Of a DNA stretch of 64,000 nt, positions 5,918-46,783 are shown piece after piece. The notes beneath the pieces are model-generated. The model made no database searches and had not been told where the DNA came from. It saw nothing but the letters and a program-made list of their open reading frames with translations. The position numbers and the translations under genes are program-made. Numbering within the stretch: the stretch's first letter is position 1; every line of letters starts with the position of its first letter. Source of the stretch: Phycisphaerales bacterium (GTDB lineage: Bacteria > Planctomycetota > UBA1135 > UBA2386); contig JADCJE010000008.1 in NCBI GenBank assembly GCA_020247305.1, positions 157,016 through 221,015 of the forward strand, given 5' to 3'.

Positions 5918-5946
5918 ACCCAGGGACCAACGGCCGGCTCCGCCTC

Positions 5947-5978: not shown

Positions 5979-6005
5979 CGCGATTGCGGCCGCCGAGGCT
6001 TGCGG

Positions 6006-6029: not shown

Positions 6030-6036
6030 TGGCCGC

Positions 6037-9294: not shown

Positions 9295-10152
9295 ATGCGC
9301 CGCATGCGGAATTCCTGGCGATCCCTCGTGGCGGGAGCATTCGCGCTCGCCGGCGCGGCCTGCGGCAATCTCAACATCTACAGCGACGACCAGCTCGAAC
9401 CGCTGAGCGTGCAGGCCTACGAGGAGGCGACCAAGGAGACCAAGGGCGTCATCACCAGCGGACCGCAGTACGAAATGGTGCAGCGCGTGGCGAAGAAGAT
9501 CGCCGCCGCCTCGGGCGAGACGAAGTTCCCGTGGGAAGCGCGGCTGCTGAAGGCCGACGACGTGCCCAACGCCTTCTGCCTGCCCAACGGTCGCATCGCC
9601 ATCTACACCGGCATCCTGCCGGTGACGCAGAACGAGGACGGCCTCGCCATCGTCATGGGCCACGAGGTCGCGCACGCGATCCTGCGCCACGGCGGCAAGC
9701 GCATGACGCAGGGCACGTTCAGCGAGTTCACGATGGCCGCCGCGCAAGCGGGTCTCGACCTCACCAAGATGAGCGGCGAGGCGAAGGCGGGCACCATGGC
9801 CGTGCTCGGCATGGGCGCGCAGGTCGGCGTGCTGCTGCCGTACAGCCGCGACCACGAGTCCGAGGCCGACATCGAGGGCCTGCGCTACGCCGTCCGCGCC
9901 GGCTACGACCCCAACGAAGCGCCGAAGCTGTGGGAGCGCATGGCCGCGCTCGGCGGCGGCGACACGCCGGAGTGGCTCAGCACCCACCCCGCGTCGGCGG
10001 CGCGCGCGAAGAAGCTGCGCGAGATGATCCCGGTGATCGTCGAGCAGGAGAAGGGCTGGCAGGCCGCCCCGGCGCCGTCGGCGCCGACCAAGAAGGTCGC
10101 GCCCGGTGCAATCAAGACCGGCGCGACGAAGGCCGGCGCGACGAAGCAGTGA
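9295..10152 (+). CDS. M48-family zinc metalloprotease lipoprotein
   Basis: Lipobox FALAGAAC, HEVAH zinc motif, downstream ESEAD, and a C-terminal Lys/Ala/Thr-rich tail. Confidence 0.9.
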   Translation: MRRMRNSWRSLVAGAFALAGAACGNLNIYSDDQLEPLSVQAYEEATKETKGVITSGPQYEMVQRVAKKIAAASGETKFPWEARLLKADDVPNAFCLPNGRIAIYTGILPVTQNEDGLAIVMGHEVAHAILRHGGKRMTQGTFSEFTMAAAQAGLDLTKMSGEAKAGTMAVLGMGAQVGVLLPYSRDHESEADIEGLRYAVRAGYDPNEAPKLWERMAALGGGDTPEWLSTHPASAARAKKLREMIPVIVEQEKGWQAAPAPSAPTKKVAPGAIKTGATKAGATKQ

Positions 10153-10178
10153 GCGCGCCGCTGCGCTGACGACGGACC

Positions 10179-11261: not shown

Positions 11262-11456
11262 GTTCGGCTCGAACGACGATGGCGCGGCAATGCTCCGCGA
11301 TGGGAACGGCTGCCGCTGCGGGGGCGTGTCGGCCCAGCGATCAGACCATGCGGGCGCTGGTCCGAGGGCGCGGATGCCGCTCGCCGTGGGCCGATCGGCG
11401 CGCCAAGCGGTGGCCGGCGCGCAGCCCCTGCGCGCCAGCAGCCGCGAAGACCAGCC

Positions 11457-12755
<1,299 letters not shown>

Positions 12756-12832
12756 CGCATCAGCGTCGTCGTCGACGGAAGGGTCGTTACTTGAGGCGAG
12801 AGACTAGGCCGTAGCCCGCCCCGTGGCCTCAG

Positions 12833-12862
12833 AAAAAACCCGGCTCCGGCGCGCCGCCGGCA
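12833..12862 (-). terminator. candidate intrinsic terminator downstream of the beta-lactamase/VanX fusion gene
   Basis: The minus-strand RNA after the stop at 12881 reads ...CUGCCGGCGGCGCGCCGGAGCCGGGUUUUUUC. A GC-rich stem-loop (CCGGC...GCCGG) is followed immediately by U6, an A-run on the plus strand at 12833..12838. Confidence 0.45.
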
Positions 12863-12880
12863 GCGGCCAGGACGTTCCGC

Positions 12881-30629: not shown

Positions 30630-31922
30630 TCAGCCGCCGCCGCCCGGACCGCTGGCCGGCGGCGTCACCGGCTTCGTCGCGTCGGACTTCGCCGGATCCT
30701 TCTTCTCCACCGGCTTGCCGTCCACCGGTTTGCCGTCCGCCGGCTTCGCCTCGAGGGGCTTCTCGCCGCCCGGCGACGTCGCCGCCGGGGCGCCGTCGGC
30801 CGGCTTCTTGTCGCCGTCCTGCGGCGCGGTGGTCGGCGCAGCCGGATCGAAGCACTGCGCCGGCACGTCGAGTTCGAACTGCGTCACCGTGCCCTGCGGC
30901 CACGTCATGACGAAGCCCGACTCGTTGGTCATCAGGTAGTGCTCGTTCTTGCCTTCGAGCTGGTTGCCGACGGCGATCTTCAGCTTGCGCTCGCGATCGC
31001 CCTCCTGCACCACGAGGTCGATCTCGATGCGCGGCGGCGCGAGGCCGAGCACGGCCAGGTTGCCGGCGCGCGCGGTCGGCAGCCGGTAGTCCTGGGCAGC
31101 GACGTAGCGCAGCCGCTGCACGAGGTTCTCGACCTCGGTCTGGCGTACCGCACCGAGGCCCGCCGGCGCATCGACCGCCACCCACGATGCCTTGCCGGCC
31201 GGCCGCTCGAACGTGAACGCCGCGCCGAGCGTGGCGGCGTTGCGGATCGACAGCCGCCGCACCTTGTCGGGCTCGATGCGGGCGAGCACCTTGTCGAGCC
31301 AGAGGTCCTGCTGCACCGAACGCAGCCAGGCCTTGTCGACCTCGTAGAGGATCACGTCGTTCGAGTCGCTCTTGCGCACGAACACGCCGCGCACCGCCTC
31401 GGTGCCGATCTGGCCCTGGCCGGCGTCGCGACCGACCAGCAGTTCGGCCACGACGTTGCGCTGCGTCGCGTCCGTGGCGCGGACGACGAACGCCTGCTTC
31501 TCGTCGAGCCCGAACTCCGCCAGTTGCTCCGGCGTCGCGTCGGGCTGGACCAGCACGTCGCGGTCGGCGCGGATGCTGCGCAGGTGCTGGAACACCTGCT
31601 GCTCCAGCTGGTCCTTGCCGACCGGCGCGCCGGCCAGGTCGCCCTGCGCCAGCGCGAAGCCCTTGTCCGTGCGCTGGAACACCAGCTGGTCGTAGGCGAC
31701 CTTGGGCGCCTGCGGGTTGCCCGGGTCGGGTTGCGGCTGCTCCTTCTTCGGCTGCCCCAGCGTCACGAACATGACGTTGTCGGCGGTGAAGCCGTCGAAC
31801 AGCAGCGGCACGCTGCCGATGTCGACGAAGGTCTCGGCGTCGCGCCGCAGCTGCAGGAAGGTCGGGATCGCGAGCGCGGCCGCGAGCGCGGCGAGCAGGA
31901 CGTTGCGTTGGGCGAGGTTCAT
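30630..31922 (-). CDS. DUF4340-like protein (partner of GldG-type ABC auxiliary proteins)
   Basis: N-terminal anchor MNLAQRNVLLAALAAALAIPTFL, a beta-rich body and a Lys/Pro/Asp-rich tail. It sits directly downstream of the GldG-like gene, as is usual for this family. The assignment rests on context and general pattern. Confidence 0.7.
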   Translation of the reverse strand: MNLAQRNVLLAALAAALAIPTFLQLRRDAETFVDIGSVPLLFDGFTADNVMFVTLGQPKKEQPQPDPGNPQAPKVAYDQLVFQRTDKGFALAQGDLAGAPVGKDQLEQQVFQHLRSIRADRDVLVQPDATPEQLAEFGLDEKQAFVVRATDATQRNVVAELLVGRDAGQGQIGTEAVRGVFVRKSDSNDVILYEVDKAWLRSVQQDLWLDKVLARIEPDKVRRLSIRNAATLGAAFTFERPAGKASWVAVDAPAGLGAVRQTEVENLVQRLRYVAAQDYRLPTARAGNLAVLGLAPPRIEIDLVVQEGDRERKLKIAVGNQLEGKNEHYLMTNESGFVMTWPQGTVTQFELDVPAQCFDPAAPTTAPQDGDKKPADGAPAATSPGGEKPLEAKPADGKPVDGKPVEKKDPAKSDATKPVTPPASGPGGGG

Positions 31923-31935
31923 CGGCGGGTCCTCA

Positions 31936-34050
31936 TCAGCCGATCGACGACAGGAAGGTCCGCTTCTGCGCGCGGCGGACGAAGTACACGCAGAGGCCCA
32001 GCGCCGCGAGCAGCGCGCCGGGCAACACGACGTTGAGCGCGCGCAGCCACGTCGTCTTGCGCCGCAGCGCCTGCTCGTGCAGGCGCGGGTCGGCGTTCGG
32101 ATCGCGCGTCTCCTCCAACAGCTTCAGCGAGCGGTCGGTGGCGACCTTCGACTGCAGCGCGACGAGGTCCTTGTCCTCGGCCAGCCAGTCGAGCATCTGG
32201 GCGAAGAACGGCGCCGCCGAGCGGCCCGAAACCGGACCGCCGGCTTGGGCGTGATCGCCACGCACGATGTCGTCGCGCAGGAAGTCGGCGTCGCCAACCA
32301 CGACGATGCGGCCGGGTCGATCGCCACGCTCAGCCGCCGGGGCCTCGGTCGCGACGGCGGCGGCGTCGTCCTCGGCGCGCTTGTCGGCCGGCGGCGTCTG
32401 CTCGCCGTCCTTCTGCTTCGCCGCAGCTTCGGCCTGCTTGGCTTCTTCCTCGGCCTTCTTGGCCTCCGCCTCCTTGATCTCGCTCGGGCGCTTGGGCCGC
32501 TCGCGGCCGGCGAAGAACGACACGAAGCGGCCGCGGACCTCCGCCATCAGCGGGGCCTGCTGGCGCGGCTCGGCGGCGAGGCGTTCACGCAACTTGCCGG
32601 CGAACTTCTGGTAGGCGTCGAGCCGCTGCTGGCCGTCGCCGAAGCCGATCGGGTTGAGCGACTGCGGCGGGTCCTCGACCAGGGCCAGCGGGCTCGACCA
32701 CAGCAGCACGCGGCCGGCGACGTCGGGCGGCAGGTCCGGCGCGCCGCCGGCCTTGGTGCGCACGCCGACCCACGTCGGCCAGTAGAAGCCCGGCCCGCGC
32801 TTCTGCTGCTTCCAGGCCTGGAAGACGAACTCGTCGCTCGGCATGCCGGGCACGAAGAGCTTGCGGTACTGCTCGGCGAGGTCCTTGTCGACCTGGCCAC
32901 GCGCGTCCTTGGCGAGGTCGTTGGCTGCGTCCTTCCAGTCGATGGCGACGGGATGGAAGAAGTACGGATACTCGATCGGGCTCAGCTGCTGGCCGAATGG
33001 CGTCAACTGCGGCACGGCGAAGTACTCGAAGCGCCCCTGGACAGGATCGCGCGGCTGAAAGGCGTCGCGGCTGAGGTCGGCGACGAGGCGCGGCTTCCAG
33101 TCGATGCCGTAGTGCAGCAGTTGGTCGGTCAGCTTCTGCGAGCTGCCGGCGGCGTCGAGCGCGAGCGGCGCCCTGGTCATCGTGCGCTGCGGGCCGACCA
33201 TGTACTCGGCGGCGTCGACGAAGGCGACGAGCGTGCCGCCCTTCACGACGAACTGGTCGAGCACGTACTTCTGCCGGTCGGTCAGGTCCTTCGGCCGGAA
33301 CAGGAACAGCGTCTGCAGGTCGTCCGGCAGCAGCGCCCCATCCTCGTCCTTGAGGTTCTGGAACTCGTAGCGCTTGGCGATGCCGTCCAGCGTGCGCAGC
33401 ACGTTCCAGCCGAGCGGGCCGGCCTGCGCCCCCTGCGGGTTCGTCGCCGGCCATTCCATGTAGCCGATGCGGCGCTTCTGCGAGGTGATGACCTCCTTGA
33501 TCGCCGGCGTGATCACCGCCTCGGCCAGGAACGAGCTCCCGGGCGCGAACTGCGGCACGACCTTGTTCTTGTCGCCGCCGTAGACGAAGCGCAGCCCCTG
33601 CCAGTGCACGTCGACCGACAGCGAGGTCGACGACTGGCTGCGCAGCTCCAGCGGCTTGACGCCGACGCGCGTCGCCTTGTCCTTCACCGCCTTGTCGGCG
33701 TTGGGGTCGAAACGCTGCACGACGACGTTGCCCTTGCCGAGCTGCACCAGCTCGTCGAGGAAGCTGTCGGCCCAGGCGCGCGTCTCGCGCACGGCGACGG
33801 GCAGCTTCTCCTTCGGGCTGAAGTAGGCCTCGACGACGAGGCGCTTGTCGAGCCTGGCCAGCAGGTCGCGCGTCGACGACGTCGTCGACCACAGGCCGTC
33901 GGACGTCAGGTCGACCCGCGCGCGGTGGCGCGACGCGAGGTAGACAACCTGCGCCAGCACGACGAGCAGCAGCAGCACGTGCAGGACGAGCGCCGGCGCG
34001 GAGCCGCGCTCGCGGGAACGGGAATCGGTGCGGACGTGGGGAGTCGCCAT
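31936..34050 (-). CDS. GldG-like ABC-transport auxiliary component
   Basis: 704 aa with N- and C-terminal TM anchors. DLTSDGLWSTTSSTRDLLARLDKRLVVEAYFS is typical of the family N-terminus. An internal Lys/Glu/Ala-rich spacer is present. Confidence 0.85.
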   Translation of the reverse strand: MATPHVRTDSRSRERGSAPALVLHVLLLLVVLAQVVYLASRHRARVDLTSDGLWSTTSSTRDLLARLDKRLVVEAYFSPKEKLPVAVRETRAWADSFLDELVQLGKGNVVVQRFDPNADKAVKDKATRVGVKPLELRSQSSTSLSVDVHWQGLRFVYGGDKNKVVPQFAPGSSFLAEAVITPAIKEVITSQKRRIGYMEWPATNPQGAQAGPLGWNVLRTLDGIAKRYEFQNLKDEDGALLPDDLQTLFLFRPKDLTDRQKYVLDQFVVKGGTLVAFVDAAEYMVGPQRTMTRAPLALDAAGSSQKLTDQLLHYGIDWKPRLVADLSRDAFQPRDPVQGRFEYFAVPQLTPFGQQLSPIEYPYFFHPVAIDWKDAANDLAKDARGQVDKDLAEQYRKLFVPGMPSDEFVFQAWKQQKRGPGFYWPTWVGVRTKAGGAPDLPPDVAGRVLLWSSPLALVEDPPQSLNPIGFGDGQQRLDAYQKFAGKLRERLAAEPRQQAPLMAEVRGRFVSFFAGRERPKRPSEIKEAEAKKAEEEAKQAEAAAKQKDGEQTPPADKRAEDDAAAVATEAPAAERGDRPGRIVVVGDADFLRDDIVRGDHAQAGGPVSGRSAAPFFAQMLDWLAEDKDLVALQSKVATDRSLKLLEETRDPNADPRLHEQALRRKTTWLRALNVVLPGALLAALGLCVYFVRRAQKRTFLSSIG

Positions 34051-34053
34051 GGC

Positions 34054-34788
34054 TCAGCCCCGCTGGCGCCGGGACTCGAGCACCAGCGCGTTGGCGTAGA
34101 GGAAGAACCCGCAGAAGCAGGCAAAGTAGACGATGTCGCGCGAGTCGAGGACGCCGCGCGCGATGCTGACGAAGTACTTGTGCGGGCTGAGCCCGCTGAC
34201 GAGGTCGACGAGCCACGCCGGCATCCAGTCCGACGCGTACTCGACGTTCTGGGGATTGCCGAGCTGGTAGAGCACGAACAGCGACACCAGCGAGAGCAAC
34301 ATCGCCACCATCTGGTCGCGCGTCGTGCTCGACCAGAACATGCCGACCGCGACGAAGCTGCTGGCGAACAGCAGCGACGCGAGGTAGCTGCCGAGGACCG
34401 GCGACCAGTCGAGCTTGCCATAGGCGCCGAGCGTCAGCGGCAGGCCGAGCGTCAGCGCCAGCACGCACGCGAGATAGACGACACAGGCGAGGAACTTGCC
34501 GAACACCAGCTGGCCGATGCGCACGGGGAACGTCATCAGCAACTCCAGCGTGCCGAGCTTGCGCTCCTCCGCCCACATGCGCATGGTCAGCCCGGGCAGG
34601 AACAGCACGAGCATCAACGGCAGCGTGGCGAACAGACCCTCCGCGCTGGCGCGCGCGCCGTTCTGCAGTGCACCCTCGCTGACGTAGTAGAGCAGCACCG
34701 ACACCAGCAGGATGCCGAACACGTACGCGATCGGCGACAGGAAGAAGCTGCGCAGCTCGCGCCGGAACACGACGAGGGTCTCACGCAT
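34054..34788 (-). CDS. ABC-2 type transporter permease (GldF-like)
   Basis: MRETLVVFRRELRSFFLSPIAYVF N-terminus and six hydrophobic segments. It overlaps the ATPase gene by 8 nt. Confidence 0.85.
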   Translation of the reverse strand: MRETLVVFRRELRSFFLSPIAYVFGILLVSVLLYYVSEGALQNGARASAEGLFATLPLMLVLFLPGLTMRMWAEERKLGTLELLMTFPVRIGQLVFGKFLACVVYLACVLALTLGLPLTLGAYGKLDWSPVLGSYLASLLFASSFVAVGMFWSSTTRDQMVAMLLSLVSLFVLYQLGNPQNVEYASDWMPAWLVDLVSGLSPHKYFVSIARGVLDSRDIVYFACFCGFFLYANALVLESRRQRG

Positions 34789-35737
34789 GGACGGCCTCCT
34801 GCGCCTTGGCGCCGGTCAGCTTGCGGAAGATGTCCTCCAGCGAAGCGTGCTCGACGGCGAGTTCGAGCAACTGCCAGCCGTGGCGGCAGGCCTGGGCGGC
34901 GACCGCCGCGGGGAACTCGCTCGCCGCGGACGGCAGGCCGAATCGCCACGTGGTGACGCCATTGCCGCCGCCTTCGGCCGCGAGCGGCGCGCCGGGCGGC
35001 AGCAGTTGCAGCAATTGTGCGCGCACCGAGTCGGCCGGACCGCGCACGCGCACACGCAGTGCCGCGCCGCCGTGCGCGGCCGCGATCTGCGCCTGCGTGC
35101 CGTCGGCGACGATGCGGCCCTGGTCGATGATCACGACGCGCGTGCAGGACTTCTCGACTTCCTGCAGGTAGTGCGTGCTGAGGATGACCGTGTGCTCCTT
35201 GCCCAGCTGCTCGATCAGGGTGCGAACCTCGACGATCTGGTTGGGGTCCAGGCCCGAGGTCGGCTCGTCGAGGATCAGCACGGGCGGCTCGTGCACGATC
35301 GCCTGGGCCAGGCCGACGCGCTGCTTGAAGCCCTTGCTGAGCTCGACGATGTTCTTGCCGAGCACGCGCTGCAACACGCAGCGCTCGACCGCGCGGCCGA
35401 TGGCGGCGCGTTGCCGACCGGCCGGGATGCCGCGAATCTCGGCGCAGAAGCGCAGGTACTCGTCGACCCGCATCTCGCCGTAGAGCGGCGTCGTTTCCGG
35501 CAAGTAGCCGATGCAGCGTCGCGCCGCGACGCTGGCGGCGACGACGTCGTGGCCGGCGACCGACGCGCGGCCGGACGTCGGCAGCAGGTAGCCGGTCAGG
35601 ATCTTCATCGTCGTCGACTTCCCGGCGCCGTTGGGGCCGAGGAAGCCGACCACTTCGCCCTTCTGCACCGTGAAGGAGACGCCCTTCAGGGCCCGGGCGA
35701 AGCCGTAGGACTTCGCGAGTTGTTCGACTTCGATCAT
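34781..35737 (-). CDS. ABC transporter ATP-binding protein (GldA-like)
   Basis: From internal Met MIEVEQLAKSYG of ORF 34781..35863. Walker A GPNGAGKST, signature LSKGFKQRV, Walker B LILDEPTSGLD. Confidence 0.93.
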   Translation of the reverse strand: MIEVEQLAKSYGFARALKGVSFTVQKGEVVGFLGPNGAGKSTTMKILTGYLLPTSGRASVAGHDVVAASVAARRCIGYLPETTPLYGEMRVDEYLRFCAEIRGIPAGRQRAAIGRAVERCVLQRVLGKNIVELSKGFKQRVGLAQAIVHEPPVLILDEPTSGLDPNQIVEVRTLIEQLGKEHTVILSTHYLQEVEKSCTRVVIIDQGRIVADGTQAQIAAAHGGAALRVRVRGPADSVRAQLLQLLPPGAPLAAEGGGNGVTTWRFGLPSAASEFPAAVAAQACRHGWQLLELAVEHASLEDIFRKLTGAKAQEAVHA

Positions 35738-35909
35738 GGGACGATGCACGGGGCGCCGCCGCTGGCGACGGCGGCGAGGGGAACGGGCGCGCACCGTCCG
35801 ACGGCCGGCGCGCGGACGCCAGACGGCACAGGGTGGCGCACGACGGACGGGGCGGCAAGACACTCCGTCCGCTGCGCCGCAACGGACTCAATCCTCCTGG
35901 CAGTTCACT

Positions 35910-36010: not shown

Positions 36011-37552
36011 TCAGTCCTCCAGGCGGAACGAATCGAGGAACTGCTTGTTGCTGTCGGTCTTCATCAGGCGGTCGATCAGCAGCGGCATGGCGTCGAGCGC
36101 GTTCATGCGCGCGAGCACCCGCCGCAGCGTGTAGAGGCGCTTGGTGACGTCCGCGCCGAGGAGCAGCTCCTCCTTGCGCGTGCCGGACAGCTCGATGTCG
36201 ATCGCCGGGAAGATACGGCGCTCGGCGAGCTGGCGATTGAGCACCAGCTCCATGTTGCCGGTGCCCTTGAACTCCTCGAAGATGACCTGATCCATGCGCG
36301 AGCCGGTGTCGACCAGCGTCGTGGCCAGGATCGTCAGCGAGCCGCCCTCTTCGCAGTTGCGGGCCGCGCCGAAGAACTTCTTCGGCACCTCGAGCACCTT
36401 GGCGCCGAGGCCGCCGGACATCGTGCCGCCGCCGCGGCCGCCGAGGAAGCTGTTGTAGGCGCGCGTCAGGCGCGTGATCGAGTCGAGCAGGATGACGACG
36501 TCGCGGCCGGTCTCGACGAGGCGCTGCGCGCGCTTCATCGCCATCTCGCTGACGGCGATGTGGTGCTTGGGGCCTTCGTCGAGCGTCGAGACGAGGACCT
36601 CGCGGTTCGGGCCTTCGACGGTGCGCTTCCAGCCGGTCGCCTCCTCGGGGCGCTCGTCGATCAGCAGCACCATCATGTGGACGTCCGGATAGTGCGTCGA
36701 AAGCGACTGGCAGATCTGCTGCATCAGCACCGTCTTGCCGGAGCGCGGCGGCGCGACCACGAGGCCGCGCTGGCCGTAGCCGAGCGGGCACAGCAGGTCG
36801 ACGATGCGCAGCGAGATGTTCTCGTCGCTGCCCGGCGCCAGCACGAATTGCGGCTCCGGGTCGATGACCGTCATGTCGCGGAACGACTTGAGTTCGCGGC
36901 GCTCCTCCGGCGGCAAGCCGTCGACCGACTCGATCGACGCCAGCGTGAAGCGCTGCGGACCGCGGTTGGGCAGTCCGGCCTGACCGACGATCTCGCTGCC
37001 CTCCAGCAGGCGGTGCTGGCGGATCATCGTCATCGGCACGAACGTGTCGCCGTTGGGGATCGAGTCGGGCTGGTAGCTGTTTTGCTTCTTGCGCAGCCAG
37101 CCGTTGCCCTCCTTGGTGTACTCCAGCACGCCGGTGGCCTGCTCGGTCGGGCCTTCGACCAGCGGCCGGAAGTCGCCGCCGCCGCCCTGGCCACCGCCGC
37201 CGTTGCCGCCGCCACCGTAGCCGCCGCCACCGTAGCCGCCGCCGCCGTTGCCGCCGCCGCCACCACCGTAGCCACCGCCCTGGCCGCCGCCCTGGCCGCC
37301 GCCGCCGCCGAAGTTGCCTTGGCCGACGTCGTACGCGCCGGCTTGGCTGCTGCCACCGCCGAAGCCACCGCCTTGGCCGCCGCCGCCGTAGCCGCCGCCG
37401 CCGCCCTGGCCGCCGCCGCCACCGCCTTGGCCACCGCGCCGCCGCCGGCGACGACGACCGCCGCGCCAACGCCGCCGCTCAGGGCCGCCGTCGCCGCCGC
37501 CACCACCACCTGCGTCGAAGCCGCCGGAGAAATCGCCGTCCGAAATGCTCAT
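36011..37552 (-). CDS. rho: transcription termination factor Rho with Gly/Arg/Tyr-rich low-complexity N-terminus
   Basis: From internal Met MSISDGDF of ORF 36011..38014. It has a CSD-like RNA-binding segment GVLEYTKEGNGWLRK, Walker A APPRSGKT, LLIDERPEE, ILLDSITRL and GTGNMELVL. Residues 1-128 are G/R/Y/Q low complexity. Confidence 0.93.
   Translation of the reverse strand: MSISDGDFSGGFDAGGGGGGDGGPERRRWRGGRRRRRRRGGQGGGGGGQGGGGGYGGGGQGGGFGGGSSQAGAYDVGQGNFGGGGGQGGGQGGGYGGGGGGNGGGGYGGGGYGGGGNGGGGQGGGGDFRPLVEGPTEQATGVLEYTKEGNGWLRKKQNSYQPDSIPNGDTFVPMTMIRQHRLLEGSEIVGQAGLPNRGPQRFTLASIESVDGLPPEERRELKSFRDMTVIDPEPQFVLAPGSDENISLRIVDLLCPLGYGQRGLVVAPPRSGKTVLMQQICQSLSTHYPDVHMMVLLIDERPEEATGWKRTVEGPNREVLVSTLDEGPKHHIAVSEMAMKRAQRLVETGRDVVILLDSITRLTRAYNSFLGGRGGGTMSGGLGAKVLEVPKKFFGAARNCEEGGSLTILATTLVDTGSRMDQVIFEEFKGTGNMELVLNRQLAERRIFPAIDIELSGTRKEELLLGADVTKRLYTLRRVLARMNALDAMPLLIDRLMKTDSNKQFLDSFRLED
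37169..37552 (-). repeat. coding low-complexity tract (GGN/CGN codon runs) encoding the Rho N-terminal Gly/Arg-rich region
   Basis: The plus strand shows long runs of gccgcc/accgcc triplets. Translation includes [16 protein letters not shown] and repeated GGGGY/GGGGQ/GGGGN units. Confidence 0.85.
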
Positions 37553-38196
37553 GCCTTGCGTTCGTCGCCGCGCCGGAGCGCGGCTCCTTCCTGGGGCGAC
37601 GCCGACCATGCGGCGACGCCTGCTGATTGGCGACTGCCAGCGGCGTCGGCCTCCGCGATGGCGGCGGCCGCGTGCACACTGCGTTTCGCCCCTGCATCGT
37701 CCGCCAGTCGCGCCGGAGCCTTCCGGCGCGCGGTTTCCTCGCGGACTTCGGCGCCGGAACCACCCGACACCGAATGCGACGGTTGGCCGTCGCCCACTCG
37801 CAGCTGCCCTGCGGCCGCAGGCGGCGCCGGATCGGCGCATCGCCCGACGGATGCTGTGGCGCGCGCCGGCAACCTGACCAGCGGCGCGGGGCGCGACCCG
37901 GCGCACCGATACATTCGGCGACACCAGATCGGCGGCGAGCGTCGCCAGCGCGCTGTTTCCACCAGCGCCACCAACGACGGCGATGACGCTAACGGCACCC
38001 TCCCACCGGCGCAAGCAGCAGGTGCCCGAATCCGACGCCGCGCCGACCGGACCGCCCGGATCCGCCGTTGCGGGCCGCCGTCACGCACGCTATCCACGGC
38101 AAGGACGCGAACGACGGTCGGGACTCAACTTCCTGGCCGCTGCGCTCCGAAACACGCCTTGGCACCGGCCTTGCCGGCGCCGGACAACGACCACGC

Positions 38197-38859: not shown

Positions 38860-38959
38860 CGCCGCGAGCGGCCGACGCCGGCGGACCACGGCTGGCCGGG
38901 CGACGCCGCTGCGGCAGGCAGTCGCGCGGGGCTTGAACCCGCGCCGCCCGTCGACGTTG

Positions 38960-40651
38960 ATGGCCGCCATGCTGCGCGCCGCCTGCCTGCTCGCCGCCTG
39001 CCTGCTCGCCTTGGTCGCCGCACCGGCGATCGGCCAGTCCGGAGACCCGTCGCCGGGCGCGCGCTTCACGCTGTTGCTGCGCGATCCCGCCGGTGCGCCC
39101 GTCGCCGACGCCGCGGTCGAACTGGTCGTCACCAGCGCTGGTGCCCTGCCGGCGCTTGCGTGGTTCGCGGACCGGGCGCGCGCCGACGCGGCCGAACTGG
39201 CGCCGCTGCAGCCGGCGGCGCGCTTGCTGCTGCGCAGCGATGCGCGCGGCCTCGCGAGCGCGTCCTTGTCCGCCGCGGTCGCCGGCAGCGGCAGCAGCGC
39301 GGCGGGCATGGTGACGACGGCGAGCGGCCTTGGCGCCGTGGTGATCGACCTGCAGGCCGACCGGCCGCAGCGGCTCGCGCTCGCGCCGCTCGCCGCCATC
39401 GCGAGCGCGCGCGGCGACGAACTGCTGCGCGTGCATGCGCGCATCCGCACGCCGTCCGGCGCCGTCGCCCTGACGCTGCCGCCGGGCGCCAACGTCCGCC
39501 TGCCGGCCGGCGACCACGACGCGTGGATCCGCACGCCGCGCGGCTGGCAGTGGCGCCGGCTCGCGCTCGCCGCCGGACAGTCGGTGGTTCTCGCCGACGA
39601 ACCAGCCGTGCGCCGCGTGCGCCGCCCCGGCCCCGGCTGGCAGGTCCTGCCCGCTGGGCGCGCCGACGTGGCGCTGTTCGCCGCCGGCGAAGACGAGCTC
39701 TCGCTGTGCGGCGATGCGGCGACCGCGACGTTCATGGCGTGGCATGCCGCGAGCGGACGGTTGTCGCCGCCGCAGGCGCTGCCCACGGCAGCCGGAGGTG
39801 GCACGTTCGACTGGCCGCTCGCCGAAGACACGGCGAATGCGGTGGCAGTCGCCGGGCTCGGCGCCGCGCAGGGGACCACGACGGCCGACGAGGCGCTGAC
39901 GCTCGTGCAGCGGACGGCCGCCGGTGATTGGCTGCCGCTGGGCATCGCCGTGCGCCGCACGAGCGGAGCAGCCGCGAGCACAGGCTTCCTGCTGCCGTCG
40001 CCGCCGCCGGGCGACTGCTGGTTGGTGCACCTTGGCGCCGGCCTGGCACCGTGCGCCGCCCCCTACCGCGTCCAGGCCGCCCCGGCGGACGCCGCTGGGG
40101 GATCCGATCGCGCACTGGCCGTGCTGGTCCGCGACGCCGCCGGCGCGCCTGTCGCCGACGTCGCCATCGCCTACGAACCGGACGGCATGCCGCCCGCGGC
40201 CGCGCACGGGCGCACCGACGACCGCGGCCGCGCCGGCCTCGGGCTGGTGCGCACGCCTGGCGCGCTGCGCGTCGTCGACGCGCGCTTCGCCAACCAGACG
40301 CTCGCGGTCCCGGCGGCAGCGACTACGGCGATCGAAGTCGTCGTCGACACCGGCGCGCGCCTGCGCGGCATCGCGCGCTGGCCAGACGGCGCGCCAGCGC
40401 GCGGCGCCGTGGTCACGCTGCGCGACCCGCGCGGCCAGCTCGCGCCGCCGACCCGCACGACGACCACCGCAGACGACGGCAGCTTCGCCTTCCCAGGCCT
40501 CGCGGACGGCGGCGCGTACGTCGTCTTCGCCACCGCCCGCCGCGATGGCCGCACGTGGTCGGGGCGCGCCGAGACCATGGCCGGCAGCGACGCGCCGATC
40601 GCCCTGGTGGTGCGCGACGAAGATCCCGAGTTCGCGCCACCGCGGCGCTGA
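38960..40651 (+). CDS. hypothetical secreted protein
   Basis: ATG at codon 10 of ORF 38933..40651, followed by a signal peptide MAAMLRAACLLAACLLALVAAPAIGQ. Segments of the type LLLRDPAGAPVADAAVELV / VLVRDAAGAPVADVAIAY / GAVVTLRDPRG recur. Confidence 0.6.
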   Translation: MAAMLRAACLLAACLLALVAAPAIGQSGDPSPGARFTLLLRDPAGAPVADAAVELVVTSAGALPALAWFADRARADAAELAPLQPAARLLLRSDARGLASASLSAAVAGSGSSAAGMVTTASGLGAVVIDLQADRPQRLALAPLAAIASARGDELLRVHARIRTPSGAVALTLPPGANVRLPAGDHDAWIRTPRGWQWRRLALAAGQSVVLADEPAVRRVRRPGPGWQVLPAGRADVALFAAGEDELSLCGDAATATFMAWHAASGRLSPPQALPTAAGGGTFDWPLAEDTANAVAVAGLGAAQGTTTADEALTLVQRTAAGDWLPLGIAVRRTSGAAASTGFLLPSPPPGDCWLVHLGAGLAPCAAPYRVQAAPADAAGGSDRALAVLVRDAAGAPVADVAIAYEPDGMPPAAAHGRTDDRGRAGLGLVRTPGALRVVDARFANQTLAVPAAATTAIEVVVDTGARLRGIARWPDGAPARGAVVTLRDPRGQLAPPTRTTTTADDGSFAFPGLADGGAYVVFATARRDGRTWSGRAETMAGSDAPIALVVRDEDPEFAPPRR

Positions 40652-40834: not shown

Positions 40835-41821
40835 CTAGACGCGGGCCTTGGCCGGCAGGCGGCCCTCGCACGCGGCGACGAGCGCTGCCCCAAGTTGCGC
40901 CAGCGGGTACTCGCGCTCGACGGCGCCCAACTGCATGGCCGCGCGCGGCATGCCGTAGATGGCGCAACTCGCCTCGTCCTGGCCGATCGTCGTCCAACCG
41001 GCTTGACGCAGCGCCAGCAGGCCGGAGGCCCCGTCCTGGCCCATGCCGGTCATGATCACGCCGACGCCGCGGCCCGCCAGCGACAGGCAGCTCTCGAACA
41101 GCACGTCGGCCGCAGGCCGGTGGCCGCGGCGCGGCGGCTCGTCGTTCCACACCACGCGGAGCGGAGCGCCGCCGATGACCTTCACGTGGTGGTCGCCGGG
41201 CGCGATGTAGGCGACGCCGCGCGCGAGCGCGAGGCCGTCCTTCGCCAGTTCGACGCGATAACCAGTCTCGCGCGCGAGCCGACCGATCAGGTCCGCGACG
41301 AACGCCGGCGGGATGTGCTGCACGATGACCATCGGCGGCAGGTCGCGGCCGCGCAGCGCCGCGAGGAACTCGCGCAGCGCCACGGGGCCGCCGGTCGAGA
41401 TGCCGACGGCGATCAACTGCGGCGGCGTGCGATCGCCGCGCTCCGCCGGGTTCGCCGCGGGCGCAACCGCGGTCGGCCGCGCCGGCGGCAGGACAGCCCC
41501 GCACGCCTGCCGCAGCGCCTGCGCGCACGCCGTCGACCAGCCGAGCAGGCTGCGCACGTCGCTCGCGTCGGGCCACTCCAACGCGCGAGCGGCAGCGAAG
41601 ACCCCTTCGCGCGGCGGCAGCGCGCCCTTGTCGTGGCAGACGACGAGCGGCGCCGCAACGGCCGCGAGTTCGCCCGCGTACGGCCAGCGCGCGAGCACGG
41701 CGGCCTCGCCCTGTCCCGGCTGCACCGGCTCGAAGCCGGCGGCGCGCAACCACTCTGTCAGCATCGCGGCATCGGCGGCGGCCGCGACGACCGCGATCCG
41801 GGAGCGCACCAGCGTGCTCAT
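40835..41821 (-). CDS. cheB: chemotaxis protein-glutamate methylesterase CheB with divergent receiver domain
   Basis: From internal Met MSTLVRSRIAVV. The catalytic domain is intact: GISTGGP (Ser), VQHIPP (His), GMGQDG (Asp). The ATG overlaps the cheD stop (ATGA). Confidence 0.85.
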   Translation of the reverse strand: MSTLVRSRIAVVAAAADAAMLTEWLRAAGFEPVQPGQGEAAVLARWPYAGELAAVAAPLVVCHDKGALPPREGVFAAARALEWPDASDVRSLLGWSTACAQALRQACGAVLPPARPTAVAPAANPAERGDRTPPQLIAVGISTGGPVALREFLAALRGRDLPPMVIVQHIPPAFVADLIGRLARETGYRVELAKDGLALARGVAYIAPGDHHVKVIGGAPLRVVWNDEPPRRGHRPAADVLFESCLSLAGRGVGVIMTGMGQDGASGLLALRQAGWTTIGQDEASCAIYGMPRAAMQLGAVEREYPLAQLGAALVAACEGRLPAKARV

Positions 41822-42345
41822 GGCGGCGTCAGGTCCTTGAGGATGCGCTGCCACGCGGCGTCGTCGAGCGCGCCGGCCGCGAGCCGTTGCACGCTGATGC
41901 GGCCCTTCGCCGGGTCCACCACCACGACACAGCCACCGTCGGTCGCGCCGCCGACCTGACCACCGAACGCCATGCCGGCGGCCGGCGTCGCCGCCTTGAT
42001 CGCGGCGAGGTTGCGCGCCCCGATCGCCAGCCCGCCACCGACCATGCTGCCGCCGCCGACGACGCGGACGAGCAGTTTGCGCGGATCGGCGCCAGCCTGG
42101 ATCGCGAGGTCGCGCGCGCGCGGCACCGCCCGATCGGCGAAGTAGCCGGGCCCCATGCCATCGCCGACACCGCTCGGCCGCACGACGTGCGCAAGCACCG
42201 CCACCTGACGACCGAGGTCCTGCACCACGAGGCCGACGCAGGAACCGAGCAGCGCGCCGAGCACCTGCCCGGGCCCGCCGACCGCGATGCCGCCGATCGG
42301 CACCTGCACGGCGTCGGCCAAACGAAGGCGGCGACTGCCGCTCAT
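41818..42345 (-). CDS. cheD: chemoreceptor glutamine deamidase CheD
   Basis: Tail of ORF 41818..44127 from MSGSRRLRLADAVQVPIGG. LGSCVGLVV (catalytic Cys) and LAHVVRP are present. ATGA overlaps occur at both ends. Confidence 0.85.
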   Translation of the reverse strand: MSGSRRLRLADAVQVPIGGIAVGGPGQVLGALLGSCVGLVVQDLGRQVAVLAHVVRPSGVGDGMGPGYFADRAVPRARDLAIQAGADPRKLLVRVVGGGSMVGGGLAIGARNLAAIKAATPAAGMAFGGQVGGATDGGCVVVVDPAKGRISVQRLAAGALDDAAWQRILKDLTPP

Positions 42346-44303
42346 CGGCTGCCCGCCGGCGCCAGCGCGTGATGGCGGGCCGCGGCGAACTCCGCGAAGC
42401 CCGTCGGGTCGAGGATCAGCGTGACCTTGCCGTCGCCGCGGATCGCCATGCCGGCGAGGCCGGGCACGCCGGCCAACTCCGCGCACAGCGGCTTGATGAC
42501 GAGGTCCTCCTTGCCGACGAGGCGGTCGACGCCGAGCGCCACCTCGCTGCCGGGGAAGCCGAACACGACCGCATGGGCCGGCGCGTCGCCGCCGGCGCGC
42601 CCCGCGCCAGTCGCCGCGTCGGCGGCGAACCGGTAGGCCTCGGGCAGGCGCACGAGCGGCACCGGCCGCTGGCGCACGAGGATGACCGGCCGCTGCTGCA
42701 CCTGCTGCACCTGCGCGCGCGCCAACTCGACGATCTCGCGCGCCTCCGTGAGCGGCAGTGCGAACATCGTGCCGCGCACCTCCAGCAGCAGGCTGGTGAG
42801 GATCGACATGCTGGGCGGCAGTTGCACGGTGATCGTCGTGCCGACGCCGACTTCGGAACGCAGTTCGAGCGAGCCGCGCAGCTTCTTGATCGCGGCCGCG
42901 ACGATGTCCATGCCCATGCCGCGGCCGGACACCTCGGTGACCTGCTTCGCCGTCGAGAAGCCCGGCGCGAAGATCAGCCGCTGCGCCTCCTGCGGCGCCA
43001 TCACCGCAGCCTCCTCGCGGGTGACGAGGCCGAGGTCGATCGCCTTCGCCAGCACGCGCGCCGGATCGATGCCGGCGCCGTCGTCGCGCACCTCGATGAC
43101 GACGGAACTGCCGCGCTGGAAGCTCCGAACCGCGACGTGACCGCGCTCGCTCTTGCCGGCCTTGCGCCGCTGCTCGGCCGGTTCGAGACCGTGATCGACG
43201 GCGTTGCGCAGCACGTGCACCAGCGGATTGACCAGTTCGTCGGCGACGCGCTTGTCGATCTGCGTCTCCCCGCCCGCGACCTGGAAGTCCACCTGCTTGC
43301 CGACGACCTCCGCCGTGTCGCGCACCGCACGCTGCAGGCGGCGGAAGACCGTGTCGAGCGGCACCATGCGCAGTTGCAACACCGCCTCGTGGATGCCGCC
43401 GACGACGCCGTCGAAGTCGTAGGTGACGTCGTCGACGTCGCGCAGCACGCGGCCGATGCCCGACAGTTCCTCCAGGCCGGCGTGCAGGCGGCGCGCCGTC
43501 TCGTCGAGCCGTTCGAGCAGTTCGCCCGCGCCCGCCGCGGCATGGCCGGCGCGCAGACCGGCAAGGCCGCGGGCCAGTTCGGCCCCGGCGACGCCGAGTT
43601 CGCGCAGCCGCTGCAGCGGCCGGAGTTGGCGCGCGACCAGTTGCACCCGCGAACGGGCGACGACCAGTTCGCCGGTCAGGTTGACGAGGTTGTCGAGGCG
43701 CTCCATGCGCACGCGCACGGTCTCGTTGGCGTCGGCGCCACCGCCGGCCTCGGTCGGCTTGTCGGCAGCCGGCTTGCCCGCGGTCGCGGCGGGCTTCGCC
43801 GCCGCAGCGGGCGCCGGCGCCGCGTCGCCGGCGGGCAGCGGCGGCGGGTCCGCGACCACGGGCGCTGCCGCCGCGGCGGCGAGCGCCGCCGGCAGCGCCG
43901 CGTCCGGCGCCGCCAACTGCCGCTGCAGGTCGTCCAGCACGCCGATGATCGACTTCTGCTCGCCGCCGCCGGCGGCGATCTCCGCCGTCAGGCTGGTGAC
44001 GAGGTCGATCGCGTCGAACATCGTGCGCACGATCGCCGAGGTCGGCGCGAGCTTGCCGTCGCGCACGAGGCTCATCAGCGACTCCAGCTGGTGCGTCACC
44101 TTGTTGGTGCGCTCGAACCCGAAGCATGCCGACAGGCCCTTAAGCGAGTGCGCGCTGCGGAACAGCTCGTTGACCTTGTCGGCCGGCCACGCGCCGTCCT
44201 GGTCGGAGAGCGCGAGCAGGACGCGGTTCAGCTGTTCGAGGTAGTCGTGCGCCTCGCCCAGGTAGTCCGCGATCAGGTCTTCGTTGCCGTTGTTGTCGCC
44301 CAT
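42342..44303 (-). CDS. cheA: chemotaxis histidine kinase CheA
   Basis: HPt RSAHSLKG, Ala/Pro-rich linker, dimerisation segment RVRMERLDNLVNLTGELV, HATPase motifs (HVLRNAVDHG, DDGAGI, GRGMGMD), C-terminal CheW-like domain. Confidence 0.93.
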   Translation of the reverse strand: MGDNNGNEDLIADYLGEAHDYLEQLNRVLLALSDQDGAWPADKVNELFRSAHSLKGLSACFGFERTNKVTHQLESLMSLVRDGKLAPTSAIVRTMFDAIDLVTSLTAEIAAGGGEQKSIIGVLDDLQRQLAAPDAALPAALAAAAAAPVVADPPPLPAGDAAPAPAAAAKPAATAGKPAADKPTEAGGGADANETVRVRMERLDNLVNLTGELVVARSRVQLVARQLRPLQRLRELGVAGAELARGLAGLRAGHAAAGAGELLERLDETARRLHAGLEELSGIGRVLRDVDDVTYDFDGVVGGIHEAVLQLRMVPLDTVFRRLQRAVRDTAEVVGKQVDFQVAGGETQIDKRVADELVNPLVHVLRNAVDHGLEPAEQRRKAGKSERGHVAVRSFQRGSSVVIEVRDDGAGIDPARVLAKAIDLGLVTREEAAVMAPQEAQRLIFAPGFSTAKQVTEVSGRGMGMDIVAAAIKKLRGSLELRSEVGVGTTITVQLPPSMSILTSLLLEVRGTMFALPLTEAREIVELARAQVQQVQQRPVILVRQRPVPLVRLPEAYRFAADAATGAGRAGGDAPAHAVVFGFPGSEVALGVDRLVGKEDLVIKPLCAELAGVPGLAGMAIRGDGKVTLILDPTGFAEFAAARHHALAPAGSR

Positions 44304-44416
44304 GCCAGCACCGACTGCGAACCGCCAACTCCTTAGCCCTCGACGCGTCGGGCGAGGCGCCGCCGCAGCAACGCCCCGCCCGGCGACGCCTGCGGCGCCG
44401 CGTCGTCCGCCCCCGG

Positions 44417-44438
44417 CCCGCGCGGCGCGCCGCGCGGG
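44417..44438. other. perfect 22-nt GC palindrome between mcp and cheA
   Basis: cccgcgcggcgcgccgcgcggg is self-complementary. It starts 10 nt after the MCP stop codon on the transcribed strand. Confidence 0.3.
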
Positions 44439-44447
44439 CGAACCGGC

Positions 44448-46205
44448 TCAGATCTGGAACCGGCGGACCAGTTCCTTCATCGCGATCGCCTGCGCCGACA
44501 GCTCCTCGGCCGACGCCGCCATGTTGGTGGCGTTGCCCGAGTTGTTCTCGGTCAGCTTGGCGACGTTCTGGATCGCGCGGCCGACCTCCTGCGCCGTCGC
44601 CGACTGCTCGTCGGTGGCGCTGGCGATCTGGGAGATCGACTGCGCCGTGCTCTGCACGCCATCGATGATCTGACGCAGGGCGTTGCCCGTCTCCTCGGAG
44701 AGCTTCGTGCCCTCGACGACGCGCTGCGTCGACTCGCGGATCAGGCCGGTGATCTGCTTCGCCGCCTCGCTGCTGCGCTCGGCCAGCTTGCGGACCTCGT
44801 CGGCGACGACCGCGAAGCCCAGGCCGTGCTCGCCGGCGCGAGCGGCCTCGATCGCAGCGTTCAGGGCCAGCAGGTTGGTCTGGCTGGCGATCTCGCTGAT
44901 GACCTGGATGATCTCGCTGATGCGCTCGCTGGAGCGGTTGATCTCCTTCATCGCGGTGATCGACCGGTCGACGGCCTGGCCGCCCGCCGTGGCGCGCTTG
45001 CTCGTCTCGTCGGCGATCGAGTTGGCCTCGCTCGCGTTCTTGGCGATCAGGCGGATGCTCTCGGTCAGCTGGTCGACCGACGCGGTCATCTCCTCGACCG
45101 TCGCGGCGTTGGTCTGCGACGCCTCCGACAGGCTGCTGGAGGCGTTGCTGATCGTGCCGGCGCTGGCGCTGAACTGCTCGGCGCCCTCCTTGATCTGCAC
45201 GATGATGCCGCGCAGGTCCTTGATCATGCGACCGAGGCCCTCGCCCAGCTGGCCGACCGGGTCGGCGCCGGCGACCTCGTGCGTCACGGTCAGGTCGCCC
45301 TTGGCGGCGGCGTCGACGACGCGCAGCAGCACGTCGACCTTGGCGCGCAGGTCGGCCGCGGACTTCGCCTCGGCGGCGGCGCGGTGCTCGATCTCGGCCG
45401 CGAGCTTCTTCTGCTGCGTGACGACCTCCCAGTTGACCACCGCGCCGGCGAACTGGCCATCGGCGGTCCACAGCCCGGAGGCCGACAGCGAGATCGTCTC
45501 CGCGCCGAGCTGGAACTCGGCCGTGTGGTTGCGGCCGCGCAGCGCCGACAGCAGGTTGCGCTGGTGCGCCGGGTTCTTGTGGAACCGGTCGATGTTGATG
45601 CCCAACACGTCCTCGGCCCGGACGCCGAACTTCTCGACGAGCACCGGCTCCAGCGTGCGCAGGGTCTGCGCGGACTTCTTGTTGCCGTAGACGACCTTGA
45701 AGTCGGCGTCGCACACGAGCACGTTCGTCGCGATCGCGTCCATCGCGTCGATCGCGCGCTTGGCGCCGGCGGCGGCCGTGCGGCGGGCGGTGATGTCGGT
45801 GGCGAACTTGACCACCTTGGACAGCCGGCCGGCGTCGTCCTTCAGGGGGAAGTAGGTCGCCTCGATCCAGATCTCCTTGCCGCCCTTGCCGAATCGCTGG
45901 AACTCGCCGCGCTGGGGAAGGCCCAGATTGAGGTTGGCCCAGAGTTCGCGGTACTCGGCGCTGCGGGCGTGCTCCGGCGACACGAACATGCTGTGGTGAC
46001 GCCCCTTGATCTCGTCGATCGTGTAGCCGACCGCGCGCTGGAAGTTCTCGTTCGCGGTGACGATCGTGCCGTCGAGCTGGAACTCGATCATCGCCATCTG
46101 CTGGCCGACGGCCGCGACGAGCTTGGCGCTCTCGCCGCCGTTCGCCGTCCGATTGCCGCCGTTGCCGCCGCGCGCGGCGGCCTTCTTCGTCGTCGTGGTG
46201 GTCAT
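44448..46205 (-). CDS. soluble methyl-accepting chemotaxis protein with two N-terminal PAS domains
   Basis: No hydrophobic TM segment is present. PAS-like [39 protein letters not shown] is followed by a second PAS-like block and a HAMP-like segment. The conserved hairpin tip is [41 protein letters not shown]. Confidence 0.93.
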
Positions 46206-46783
46206 TGTGATTGTCCTTGCTTGCCGTTGCCCTGGGTGGATGCCTTCGCCCCGTCACCGTGGTCGCCCTCGACCAGCAGCCGCGACATGTCGAGCAGGAT
46301 CAGCAGGCGCTCCTTGCGCCGCGCCAATCCCGTCACGTAGTCCTTGCCCGCGCGCAGCAGCGAGGGCGGCGCCGGCGAGATGTCCTCGTGCGAGAGCCGC
46401 AGCACCTCGCTGACGCCGTCCACGACGACGCCGACGGTGCGGCCCTGCAGGTCCATCACCACGATGCGCGTGGCGTCGTTCGCCGGCTGGTCGGGCATGC
46501 CGAAGCGCCGGCGCAGGTTGAGGATCGGGATGACGTTGCCGCGCAGGTTGATCACGCCGAGCACGTGCTCGGGGACCTCGGGCACCTGCGTGATGCAGCC
46601 GTACAGGATGATCTCCTGCACGGTCATGATGTCGACGCCGTACTCCTCGTCGGCCAGTCGGAAGCTCACGACCTGGAAGGTCCGGCCGTCCTGATGGCGC
46701 AGGCCGCCGGTGACCGGCGCCGGGGCCGGCTTCTCCGGCGCCGCGGCCTTGCTGGGCGCCTTCGGCGCATCGATCGTCGTCAT
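46202..46783 (-). CDS. cheW: chemotaxis coupling protein CheW
   Basis: From internal Met MTTIDAPK of ORF 46202..46837. Motifs: [38 protein letters not shown]. The stop overlaps the MCP ATG. Confidence 0.9.

Follow-up and report, generated by a model that had tools for sequence, protein, structure and literature searches.

Chemosensory pathways are defined by phosphotransfer from the kinase CheA to the response regulator CheY and by a methylation feedback executed by CheR and CheB, the latter being switched on by CheA. Here we describe a five-gene chemosensory cluster in a 64-kb stretch of DNA (the window, whose numbering is used for positions given without a locus name) from a bacterium of the Phycisphaerales (Planctomycetota), which comprises neither cheY nor cheR and encodes a CheB with a conserved pseudo-receiver at the N-terminus. 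The G+C content of the window is 73%. All five genes are located on the minus strand, in the order cheW (46202–46783, with the ATG at 46783 and the stop at 46202; a coupling protein of 193 aa), mcp (44448–46205; by Pfam, a soluble methyl-accepting receptor of 585 aa, comprising PAS1, PAS2, HAMP and a 36-heptad signalling domain), cheA (42342–44303; 653 aa), cheD (41818–42345; a homologue of the receptor glutamine deamidase, 175 aa) and cheB (40835–41821; 328 aa). ATGA overlaps join cheW to mcp, cheA to cheD and cheD to cheB, whereas mcp and cheA, the sole non-overlapping pair, are separated by 144 nt (44304–44447, by sequence reading); hence the layout proposed in the first-pass annotation, with five same-strand genes, three ATGA junctions and one gap, is confirmed by reading of the minus strand. 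The Pfam scores of all five proteins exceed the curated cut-offs for the family assignments (for example, 139.6 bits for CheW, and 34.6 bits at a cut-off of 25 for CheD). The chemosensory core formed by the receptor, CheW and CheA is complete by domain composition, and each of its proteins can be aligned with the E. coli counterpart (Tar, CheW and CheA, respectively); the window CheW has in addition some 50 aa of Ala/Pro-rich sequence at its N-terminus.

The components that are missing from this set were searched for in the entire window. A hidden Markov model (HMM) of the receiver domain (REC), built from 33 canonical CheB receivers together with E. coli CheB and CheY and applied with all filters off to the six-frame, stop-to-stop translation of the 64 kb, yielded no match at E ≤ 0.1, and the N-terminal domain of the window CheB was likewise missed. 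The E. coli CheR, CheY and CheZ queries gave no match in the window by tblastn or phmmer; the E. coli CheA, CheW, CheB and Tar queries, used as positive controls, recovered their expected genes. By Pfam and the REC HMM, CheV is absent and the window CheA carries no REC domain. No motility gene was detected among the plausible window genes scanned with Pfam, the genes other than the che genes being of the housekeeping type (citrate transporter, aconitase, thiolase, citrate synthase, SMC, ABC-2/GldG-like transporter, PGI, EPSP synthase, symporters), and the Rfam, promoter and terminator scans of the region produced nothing informative. The earlier statement that no cheY or cheR is attached to the cluster thus holds for the window and also for the 14 related loci considered below. 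Since both the local phosphate acceptors and CheR are missing, the module is unable to signal or to adapt in the textbook way with its own local genes.

A gene-neighbourhood comparison with related genomes revealed these five genes, identically ordered, in 14 further loci (L001–L008, L087, L088, L091–L094) from uncultured Planctomycetota, and, together with the window, these represent three genomic contexts. In the first one, guaBA is upstream of the module, and a secreted-protein gene and clpP are downstream; in the second one, observed only in L003, the module is preceded by an aminotransferase gene and followed by a hybrid kinase-REC gene; in the third one, a pterin-binding protein is encoded upstream and a TonB-dependent receptor, downstream. 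Neither cheY nor cheR occurs in any of the 14 loci within the available flanks (up to 10 kb). Among the control loci, which encode CheB from outside the family, approximately 70 of 75 have cheR in the cluster, either directly upstream of cheB or with only cheD between them, and the control loci lacking cheR are mostly short or truncated, or contain differently ordered clusters. The gap between mcp and cheA in the family loci ranges from 30 to 134 nt. The receptor is the best conserved protein (about 76% identity to the window), followed by CheW (about 70%), CheA (about 62%), CheD (about 60%) and CheB (about 50%); known family accessions include MBK8099792.1 and MCA3006995.1, the latter being an NCBI protein from a Phycisphaerales metagenome-assembled genome (MAG) that is 100% identical to the window CheB.

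These comparisons make it very improbable that the module is a decaying, non-functional remnant. Decay would be consistent with the loss of several components and methylation sites and with the replacement of Thr by Gly in the catalytic triad of the window CheD (see below). It is at odds with the reading frames of all five genes, which are intact in every locus (apart from those truncated by contig ends) and ATGA-coupled, with the invariance of the catalytic residues, with the 50–76% protein identity retained across lineages whose CheB differs by half, and with the presence of about 58 clusters of CheB and 77 clusters of CheA in public data.

The hybrid kinase of L003, the most divergent family locus, is of the PAS-PAS-HisKA-HATPase-REC type and is encoded on the same strand (11040–12899), 86 nt after cheB. 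It is the only receiver adjoining any copy of the module. We considered it as a candidate cognate partner and rejected it, as it is found beside no other module copy, including the similarly divergent L091–L094.

The C-terminal part of CheB (residues 133–328; 40835–41425) is the methylesterase/deamidase catalytic domain, with PF01339 (CheB_methylest) scoring 181.4 bits on residues 148–325. The S142, H169 and D263 triad is invariant in the alignment of 34 family members, so the catalytic triad is indeed intact, as had been supposed. In Foldseek comparisons, the catalytic domain matches 1chd with a TM-score of 0.90, and the whole protein retrieves full-length and catalytic CheB structures (6ymz, 1a2o and 1chd; E from 1e-23 to 3e-19). 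About 58 protein clusters (317–359 aa) match the window CheB from end to end and carry PF01339 alone, whereas canonical CheBs match its C-terminal half only. One database entry, P0059 (JGI, 250 aa), is 95% identical to the window CheB over one third of its length and combines a CheW with a CheB_methylest domain; this probably reflects a chimeric gene call, or else a deletion that fused the P5 domain of cheA to cheB.

The N-terminal domain (residues 1–110; 41492–41821) has no match to PF00072 (Response_reg) even at E < 0.1. It is nevertheless far from random in sequence: the 34 family members have the motifs MLxEWLxAAGF, LxRWP, PVVLL and xPDxxDVxSLLxWS, which are particular to this family, with A27, A28, G29, P84 and W95 invariant, and W24, W46 and the SLLxWS segment nearly so. 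When a profile of the domain was run against 1.84 billion representative proteins, it reached no canonical receiver among them, and all 12 matches were members of the CheB family or fragments thereof, with the exception of two weak repetitive ones. We conclude that the domain is a conserved, lineage-restricted pseudo-receiver and not a decaying linker.

The AF2 model, with a mean confidence score (pLDDT) of 85.7 for the whole CheB and 90.3 for the N-terminal domain alone, has five parallel strands in the receiver order and two helices, alpha1 and alpha5 (beta1, alpha1, beta2–beta5, alpha5), whereas the receiver helices alpha2–alpha4 are missing. Approximately 45 of the top 50 Foldseek matches of the domain taken alone are receivers, at modest scores (E from 4e-3 to 3e-2, TM-score 0.5–0.67). 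In hhalign, 91 columns of the domain and of receivers align colinearly, with a weak score (E = 0.043, probability 1%). The BLAST alignment with an Azospirillum CheB extends from the catalytic domain into the N-terminal one and pairs REGVFAAARALEW--------PDASD with REGSDAAIRALELGAVDCLAKPGGSD; this segment corresponds to the alpha4-beta5-Lys-Pro part of the receiver, and the eight-residue deletion in the window CheB removes the Lys. Judging from the predicted structure, the domain is best read as the reduced remnant of a receiver.

At the receiver active-site columns, the window CheB has A13 and A14 in place of the acidic pair, L43-A44-R45-W46 around the acceptor, H63 at the Thr/Ser position and W83 at the Lys position. 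Throughout the family the acceptor position reads L-[A/V]-R-W-P, and the Lys position at the end of beta5 is occupied by W, L or V. In the window CheB, none of the five active-site residues is retained, and the cis-Pro (P84) is the sole remaining receiver hallmark. The first-pass annotation had described this domain as a divergent receiver that had lost one acidic residue and the Lys. Its non-canonical character and the absence of the Lys are supported by our analysis, and the loss is more extensive than proposed, as it affects all five residues and helices alpha2–alpha4; the profiles, the AF2 model and the column analysis clearly contradict the possibility of a receiver that keeps all five REC residues.

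D64 had been suggested as a possible phospho-acceptor. A CheB that would still be phosphorylated at this or another acidic residue seems hardly credible to us, notwithstanding the receiver-like fold found by Foldseek and an acidic residue at position 64 in 82% of the family. This position follows beta4, that is, it falls in the Thr/Ser87 region and not at the end of beta3 where the acceptor resides. D64 was rejected as the acceptor since Glu is more frequent there than Asp, constituting about half of the residues, and six of the 34 members have Gly, Pro, Gln or a gap. Moreover, the end of beta5 lacks the Lys, the window CheB lacks the metal-binding acidic pair, helices alpha2–alpha4 are absent, and the REC profile assigns no score to the domain.

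Pseudo-receivers, having a CheY-like fold without the acceptor Asp and a presumed protein-contact function, are known, for example, from the plant PRR clock proteins and the cyanobacterial KaiA. None of them is known to be fused to a CheB catalytic domain, and, in distinction from them, the remnant in the window has also lost three of five helices. No description of the CheB pseudo-receiver or of this type of cluster was found in the searchable literature.

The loss of the phosphorylation site in CheB is accompanied by a change in the kinase. By Pfam, CheA consists of Hpt, H-kinase_dim, HATPase_c and CheW domains, and by alignment it comprises P1, then some 60 aa of linker where P2 would be expected, P3 with a long hairpin, P4 and P5. 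PF07194 (P2) has no match in the window CheA, and the P2 domains of CheA from E. coli and from six proteobacterial Aer2 clusters align to a gap or to the low-complexity linker; the proposed absence of P2 and the length of the linker are thereby borne out. In the family as a whole, P1 and P3 are connected by a low-complexity linker whose length varies from 30 to 60 residues, and PF07194 is absent from all of about 77 family CheA clusters (identity at least 51%; mostly 600–665 aa, with a few truncated entries), below which the scores fall abruptly to planctomycetal CheAs of 940–1100 aa. In the family alignment, the His that becomes phosphorylated (FRSAHSLKG) is conserved, as are the N, G1, F and G2 boxes of P4. 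The P3 hairpin is approximately 54 residues longer than that of E. coli CheA. We rejected it as a mark of the reduced family: L089, a complete Phycisphaerales cluster considered below, encodes a CheA whose hairpin is likewise long, so that this is a lineage trait.

CheD matches the T. maritima CheD (2f9z; E = 2.5e-13), and its catalytic Cys35 and His53 are invariant in the family alignment. At residue 29 (42259–42261), six positions ahead of the Cys, the window and L004 have Gly (VLGALLGSC), and most other members have Thr (VLTTLLGSC), which matches the third triad residue of the T. maritima protein.

The receptor was expected to be a soluble protein with two PAS domains, and this is what we observe: the Pfam PAS families are detected, and no protein of the five has a hydrophobic segment of transmembrane length, the maximum in the receptor being 1.1 on the Kyte-Doolittle scale over 19 residues. 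PAS1 (residues ~40–145; 45771–46088), delineated by PDB sequence matches, is similar to two PAS domains binding flavin adenine dinucleotide (FAD), those of MmoS (3ewk; E = 1.6e-14) and E. coli Aer (8dik; E = 1.2e-10), and hence is an Aer/MmoS-like domain, probably of the flavin type. PAS2 (residues ~150–263; 45417–45758) matches the PAS domain of P. aeruginosa Aer2 (3vol; E = 6.6e-16). Its FHKNPAHQR motif and the Trp of VVNWE are in register with Aer2 (VVNWE falling on AVQWT), and both motifs are conserved in the family; we take the His of the former to be the haem ligand and the Trp of the latter to be the O2-stabilising residue, as in Aer2. By these motif criteria, PAS2 is an Aer2-type haem PAS, for which haem binding is predicted. 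The number of haem PAS domains varies within the receptor family, since the L002 receptor (5360–7429; 689 aa) has a third, N-terminal PAS that is an additional Aer2-type copy, 31% identical to window residues 154–275.

The PAS domains are followed by a HAMP-like linker (residues ~288–335; 45201–45344), which contains AAAKGDLT and aligns to the HAMP region of Tar, the Pfam score being 18.1 bits, under the cut-off of 25, and then by the kinase-control domain (44451–45200; MCPsignal, 167.8 bits; Tar alignment). Residues 300–585 align without gaps to residues 230–515 of Tar, and residues 286–585, to residues 218–517 of Tsr. By its gapless C-terminal 286-residue alignment to Tar, the receptor is assigned to the 36-heptad (36H) class. 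With methylation sites judged by alignment to Tar positions 295, 302, 309 and 491, site 2 is retained in the window receptor (E371-E372 in VEEMTAS), site 3 reads D378-Q379, and neither site 1 nor site 4 remains. Within the family, L003 has EQ at site 2 and is the one member with EE at site 4.

The closest CheA outside the family, P0375 from a Phycisphaerales MAG, belongs to a complete cluster with the order cheW-mcp-cheR-cheA-cheC/X-cheD-cheY-cheB(REC), represented by loci L089 and L090 in the assembly GCA_022360095.1. This cluster has the window order of the shared genes plus three additional ones, cheR, cheC/X and cheY, and the sole non-overlapping junction of the window, between mcp and cheA, is the exact place of cheR in L089. 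The window proteins CheW, MCP, CheA and CheD are 50%, 47%, 34% and 32% identical to their L089 counterparts, respectively, and each of them has its best score there. The two clusters share a soluble receptor with an Aer2-type haem PAS, HAMP and a gapless 36H domain, as well as the long P3 hairpin of CheA. The window differs from L089 in having no cheR, cheC/X or cheY, no second Hpt, no P2 and no phosphorylation site in CheB. Its receptor combines one haem PAS with one Aer/MmoS-like PAS, whereas the one of L089 has four haem PAS domains in tandem; and the L089 receptor keeps both site 2 (EQ) and site 4 (EE), while site 4 is lost in the window.

The receptors of L089 (6590–8989) and L090 (2572–5010) each have four Aer2-type PAS domains, all with FH(K/Q)(D/N)PxYQR and the VTWE Trp, the middle two being almost identical. 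The L089 CheA (10001–13087; 1028 aa) has two tandem Hpt (P1) domains, a P2-like region and very long acidic and Pro-rich linkers.

Because the gene order is common with L089 and CheW, MCP, CheA and CheD all score best there, the window cluster is best read as a reduced derivative of such a complete cluster, which would have lost cheR, cheC/X, cheY, P2 and the CheB phosphorylation site, and later most of the methylation sites. The loss is coherent, as P2, cheY, cheC/X and the CheB acceptor all serve phosphotransfer to CheY or CheB, and all of them are gone. As site 4 is kept in L089 and L003 and lost in the other members, its loss outside the basal L003 fits a relaxation of methylation following the loss of cheR.

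Among the closest described systems outside the lineage are the proteobacterial Aer2 clusters of class F7, stage 1/2, such as Che2 of P. aeruginosa, cluster III of V. cholerae and Che1 of S. oneidensis (Ortega et al. 2020, PMC7184735). Their order is cheY-cheA-cheW-aer2-cheR-cheD-cheB, and their function is still unclear (PMC7184735). Like the window, they have a 36H Aer2-like receptor with a haem PAS, cheD directly before cheB, and a function that is either unclear or not flagellar; the canonical CheB catalytic domains nearest to that of the window, those of Azospirillum (43–44%), also come from F7-like Aer2 clusters. Unlike the window, they have cheY, cheR, a CheA with P2, a normal CheB receiver and a different gene order. 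Besides, Aer2 is a poly-HAMP protein, with three HAMP domains before the PAS and two after it, and has no Aer-like PAS, whereas the window receptor has one weak HAMP after PAS2 and an Aer/MmoS-like PAS before it. Assignment of the window cluster to F7 was therefore rejected on the gene set and order and on the pairwise scores, by which only CheB is marginally closer to the F7-like loci and the other four proteins are closer to L089; thus, the F7 clusters are a more distant analogue than the L089 cluster.

In class F3 of Campylobacterota, a CheB without the receiver is a defining trait, accompanied by cheVAW and a CheA-REC fusion (PMC9321776). As in the window, CheB in this class is beyond phosphorylation control, and cheY is outside the core operon. 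The differences are that the receiver is wholly absent in F3, whereas a remnant of 110 aa is kept in the window, and that F3 has cheVAW with the CheA-REC fusion and has cheR in the genomes. This precedent bears on a further explanation, by which the window genes would belong to the main flagellar chemotaxis system in an ordinary split arrangement, with cheY and cheR elsewhere on the chromosome as in Campylobacterota. Split che sets are known, receiver-less CheB defines F3 (PMC9321776), and some Phycisphaerales MAGs carry flagellar genes and cheR (PMC9119077). We nonetheless regard this explanation as improbable. The same lineage has a complete cluster with the same order, so that the reduced form is derived and does not represent the normal layout of the lineage; the CheB receiver is degenerate rather than absent, and P2 is deleted; finally, the only receptor of the module is a soluble PAS protein of the haem/flavin type, and there is no motility gene among those found in the 64-kb window.

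The explanation that we prefer, with moderate confidence, is that the reduced derivative, which would be of the paralogue type, acts as a self-contained cytoplasmic O2/redox receptor-kinase module whose CheB and CheD are independent of phosphorylation and whose response regulator is encoded elsewhere. Its output may be non-flagellar, as the first-pass annotation suggested; no gene for such an output was recognised. The soluble receptor would read O2 or another haem ligand through PAS2, and probably the redox state through PAS1, the signal then proceeding via HAMP and the 36-heptad domain. Together with CheW, the receptor would control CheA, which appears catalytically intact, the kinase activity being suggested by the conserved residues. 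As there is neither P2 nor a neighbouring receiver, P1 would have to hand its phosphoryl group, with no docking at P2, straight to a receiver from another locus, be it a CheY belonging to a complete pathway or some other REC protein. The receiver of CheB being dead and conserved at the same time, the esterase/deamidase activity would be either constitutive or gated by protein contacts, and CheB and CheD would act on the remaining one or two Glx sites of the receptor (E371/E372 and Q379). Methylation of the receptor, if any, would need CheR in trans. A partner in trans is plausible, because canonical cheR, cheY and flagellar genes occur in other Phycisphaerae (L011, L043, L089; see also PMC9119077).

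Several observations weigh against this preferred reading. No CheY or CheR in trans came to light for the genomes bearing the module in a query with a CheR fragment from the Phycisphaeraceae locus L011 and in two accession look-ups, a search too limited to indicate absence. The five genes travel through three contexts without a REC gene, which could equally mean that no CheY is needed. The intact CheB esterase without a nearby CheR would be hard to explain if no CheR existed at all. Site 2 is already encoded as EE and hence has no need of a deamidase, leaving Q379 as the only obvious deamidation substrate. Finally, that the receptor binds haem and flavin, that CheA is active and that arrays form are predictions from homology.

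The main alternative is an autonomous system that works independently of CheY, with neither a regulator nor CheR, the effector role perhaps being played by the CheB pseudo-receiver, CheD or the P3 hairpin of CheA. CheD and CheB would then perform only irreversible deamidation, or would serve as readers of the receptor state. The joint loss of the local phospho-acceptors, P2 and the CheY-P phosphatase points in this direction, as do the mobility of the five genes, which recur as one block in three contexts and bring no REC gene with them, the pseudo-receiver that is under selection and exclusive to the CheB family among 1.84 billion representatives, and the loss of methylation site 4 in most members. 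Yet the His of CheA that is phosphorylated and the full set of its ATP-binding boxes are retained, which is hard to explain without an acceptor; the invariant CheB triad and the retained EEMTAS site suggest turnover of methyl esters, and hence CheR somewhere; and no alternative effector gene is conserved beside the module. On balance, we consider the autonomous system unlikely. Its more specific form is also rather unlikely in our estimation: here the pseudo-receiver would be repurposed as a sensor or docking element independent of phosphorylation, perhaps reading the state of CheA or the receptor, and the output would be something other than phosphorylation of CheY.

In either case, the lineage has dropped together CheY, the CheY phosphatase, the docking domain of CheA, the phosphorylation site of CheB and CheR, while the receptor, CheW and CheD, together with a kinase and a CheB that both seem active, are kept under clear purifying selection. 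The module thus constitutes a natural experiment on how much of the pathway a working receptor-kinase unit needs, on the role of the CheB receiver beyond phosphorylation, and on the use of CheD and CheB with no methyltransferase nearby. Its combination of an Aer2-type haem sensor with an Aer-like PAS extends the known set of cytoplasmic O2/redox receptors, in a phylum where signalling has hardly been studied. If the module proves to be autonomous, it would be a natural chemosensory pathway minus the two-component phosphorelay; if a second, complete cluster in the same genomes supplies cheY and cheR, it would be an accessory sensor module whose CheB is degenerate, of specialist interest and unsurprising.

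As for the surroundings of the cluster, the flanking genes named in the first-pass annotation, guaA upstream and a convergent secreted-protein gene downstream, were both recovered. Upstream of cheW are guaB and guaA, the latter being 86% identical to the L001 gene with GATase and GMP_synt_C domains. Downstream of cheB are the convergent gene of a Big_1/CarboxypepD_reg protein (38933–40651, plus strand), clpP and rho. The Big_1/CarboxypepD_reg product is probably secreted; its gene adjoins cheB throughout the guaBA context (36–70% identity) and is absent in the other two contexts. The Rho protein (36011–38014, minus strand) has a very long N-terminal insertion before the conserved ATPase core, with repeats of Gly and Gln/Tyr (GGGQGGG, GGYGGGG) and Arg-rich stretches. 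Beyond rho and clpP there is an ABC-2 transporter set (30630–35887, minus strand), consisting of an ATPase, a permease, a GldG-like ABC_transp_aux/DUF7088 protein and a DUF4340 protein. In one of the three contexts (the window, L001, L002, L004, L005 and L087), this set and the che module are found in synteny.

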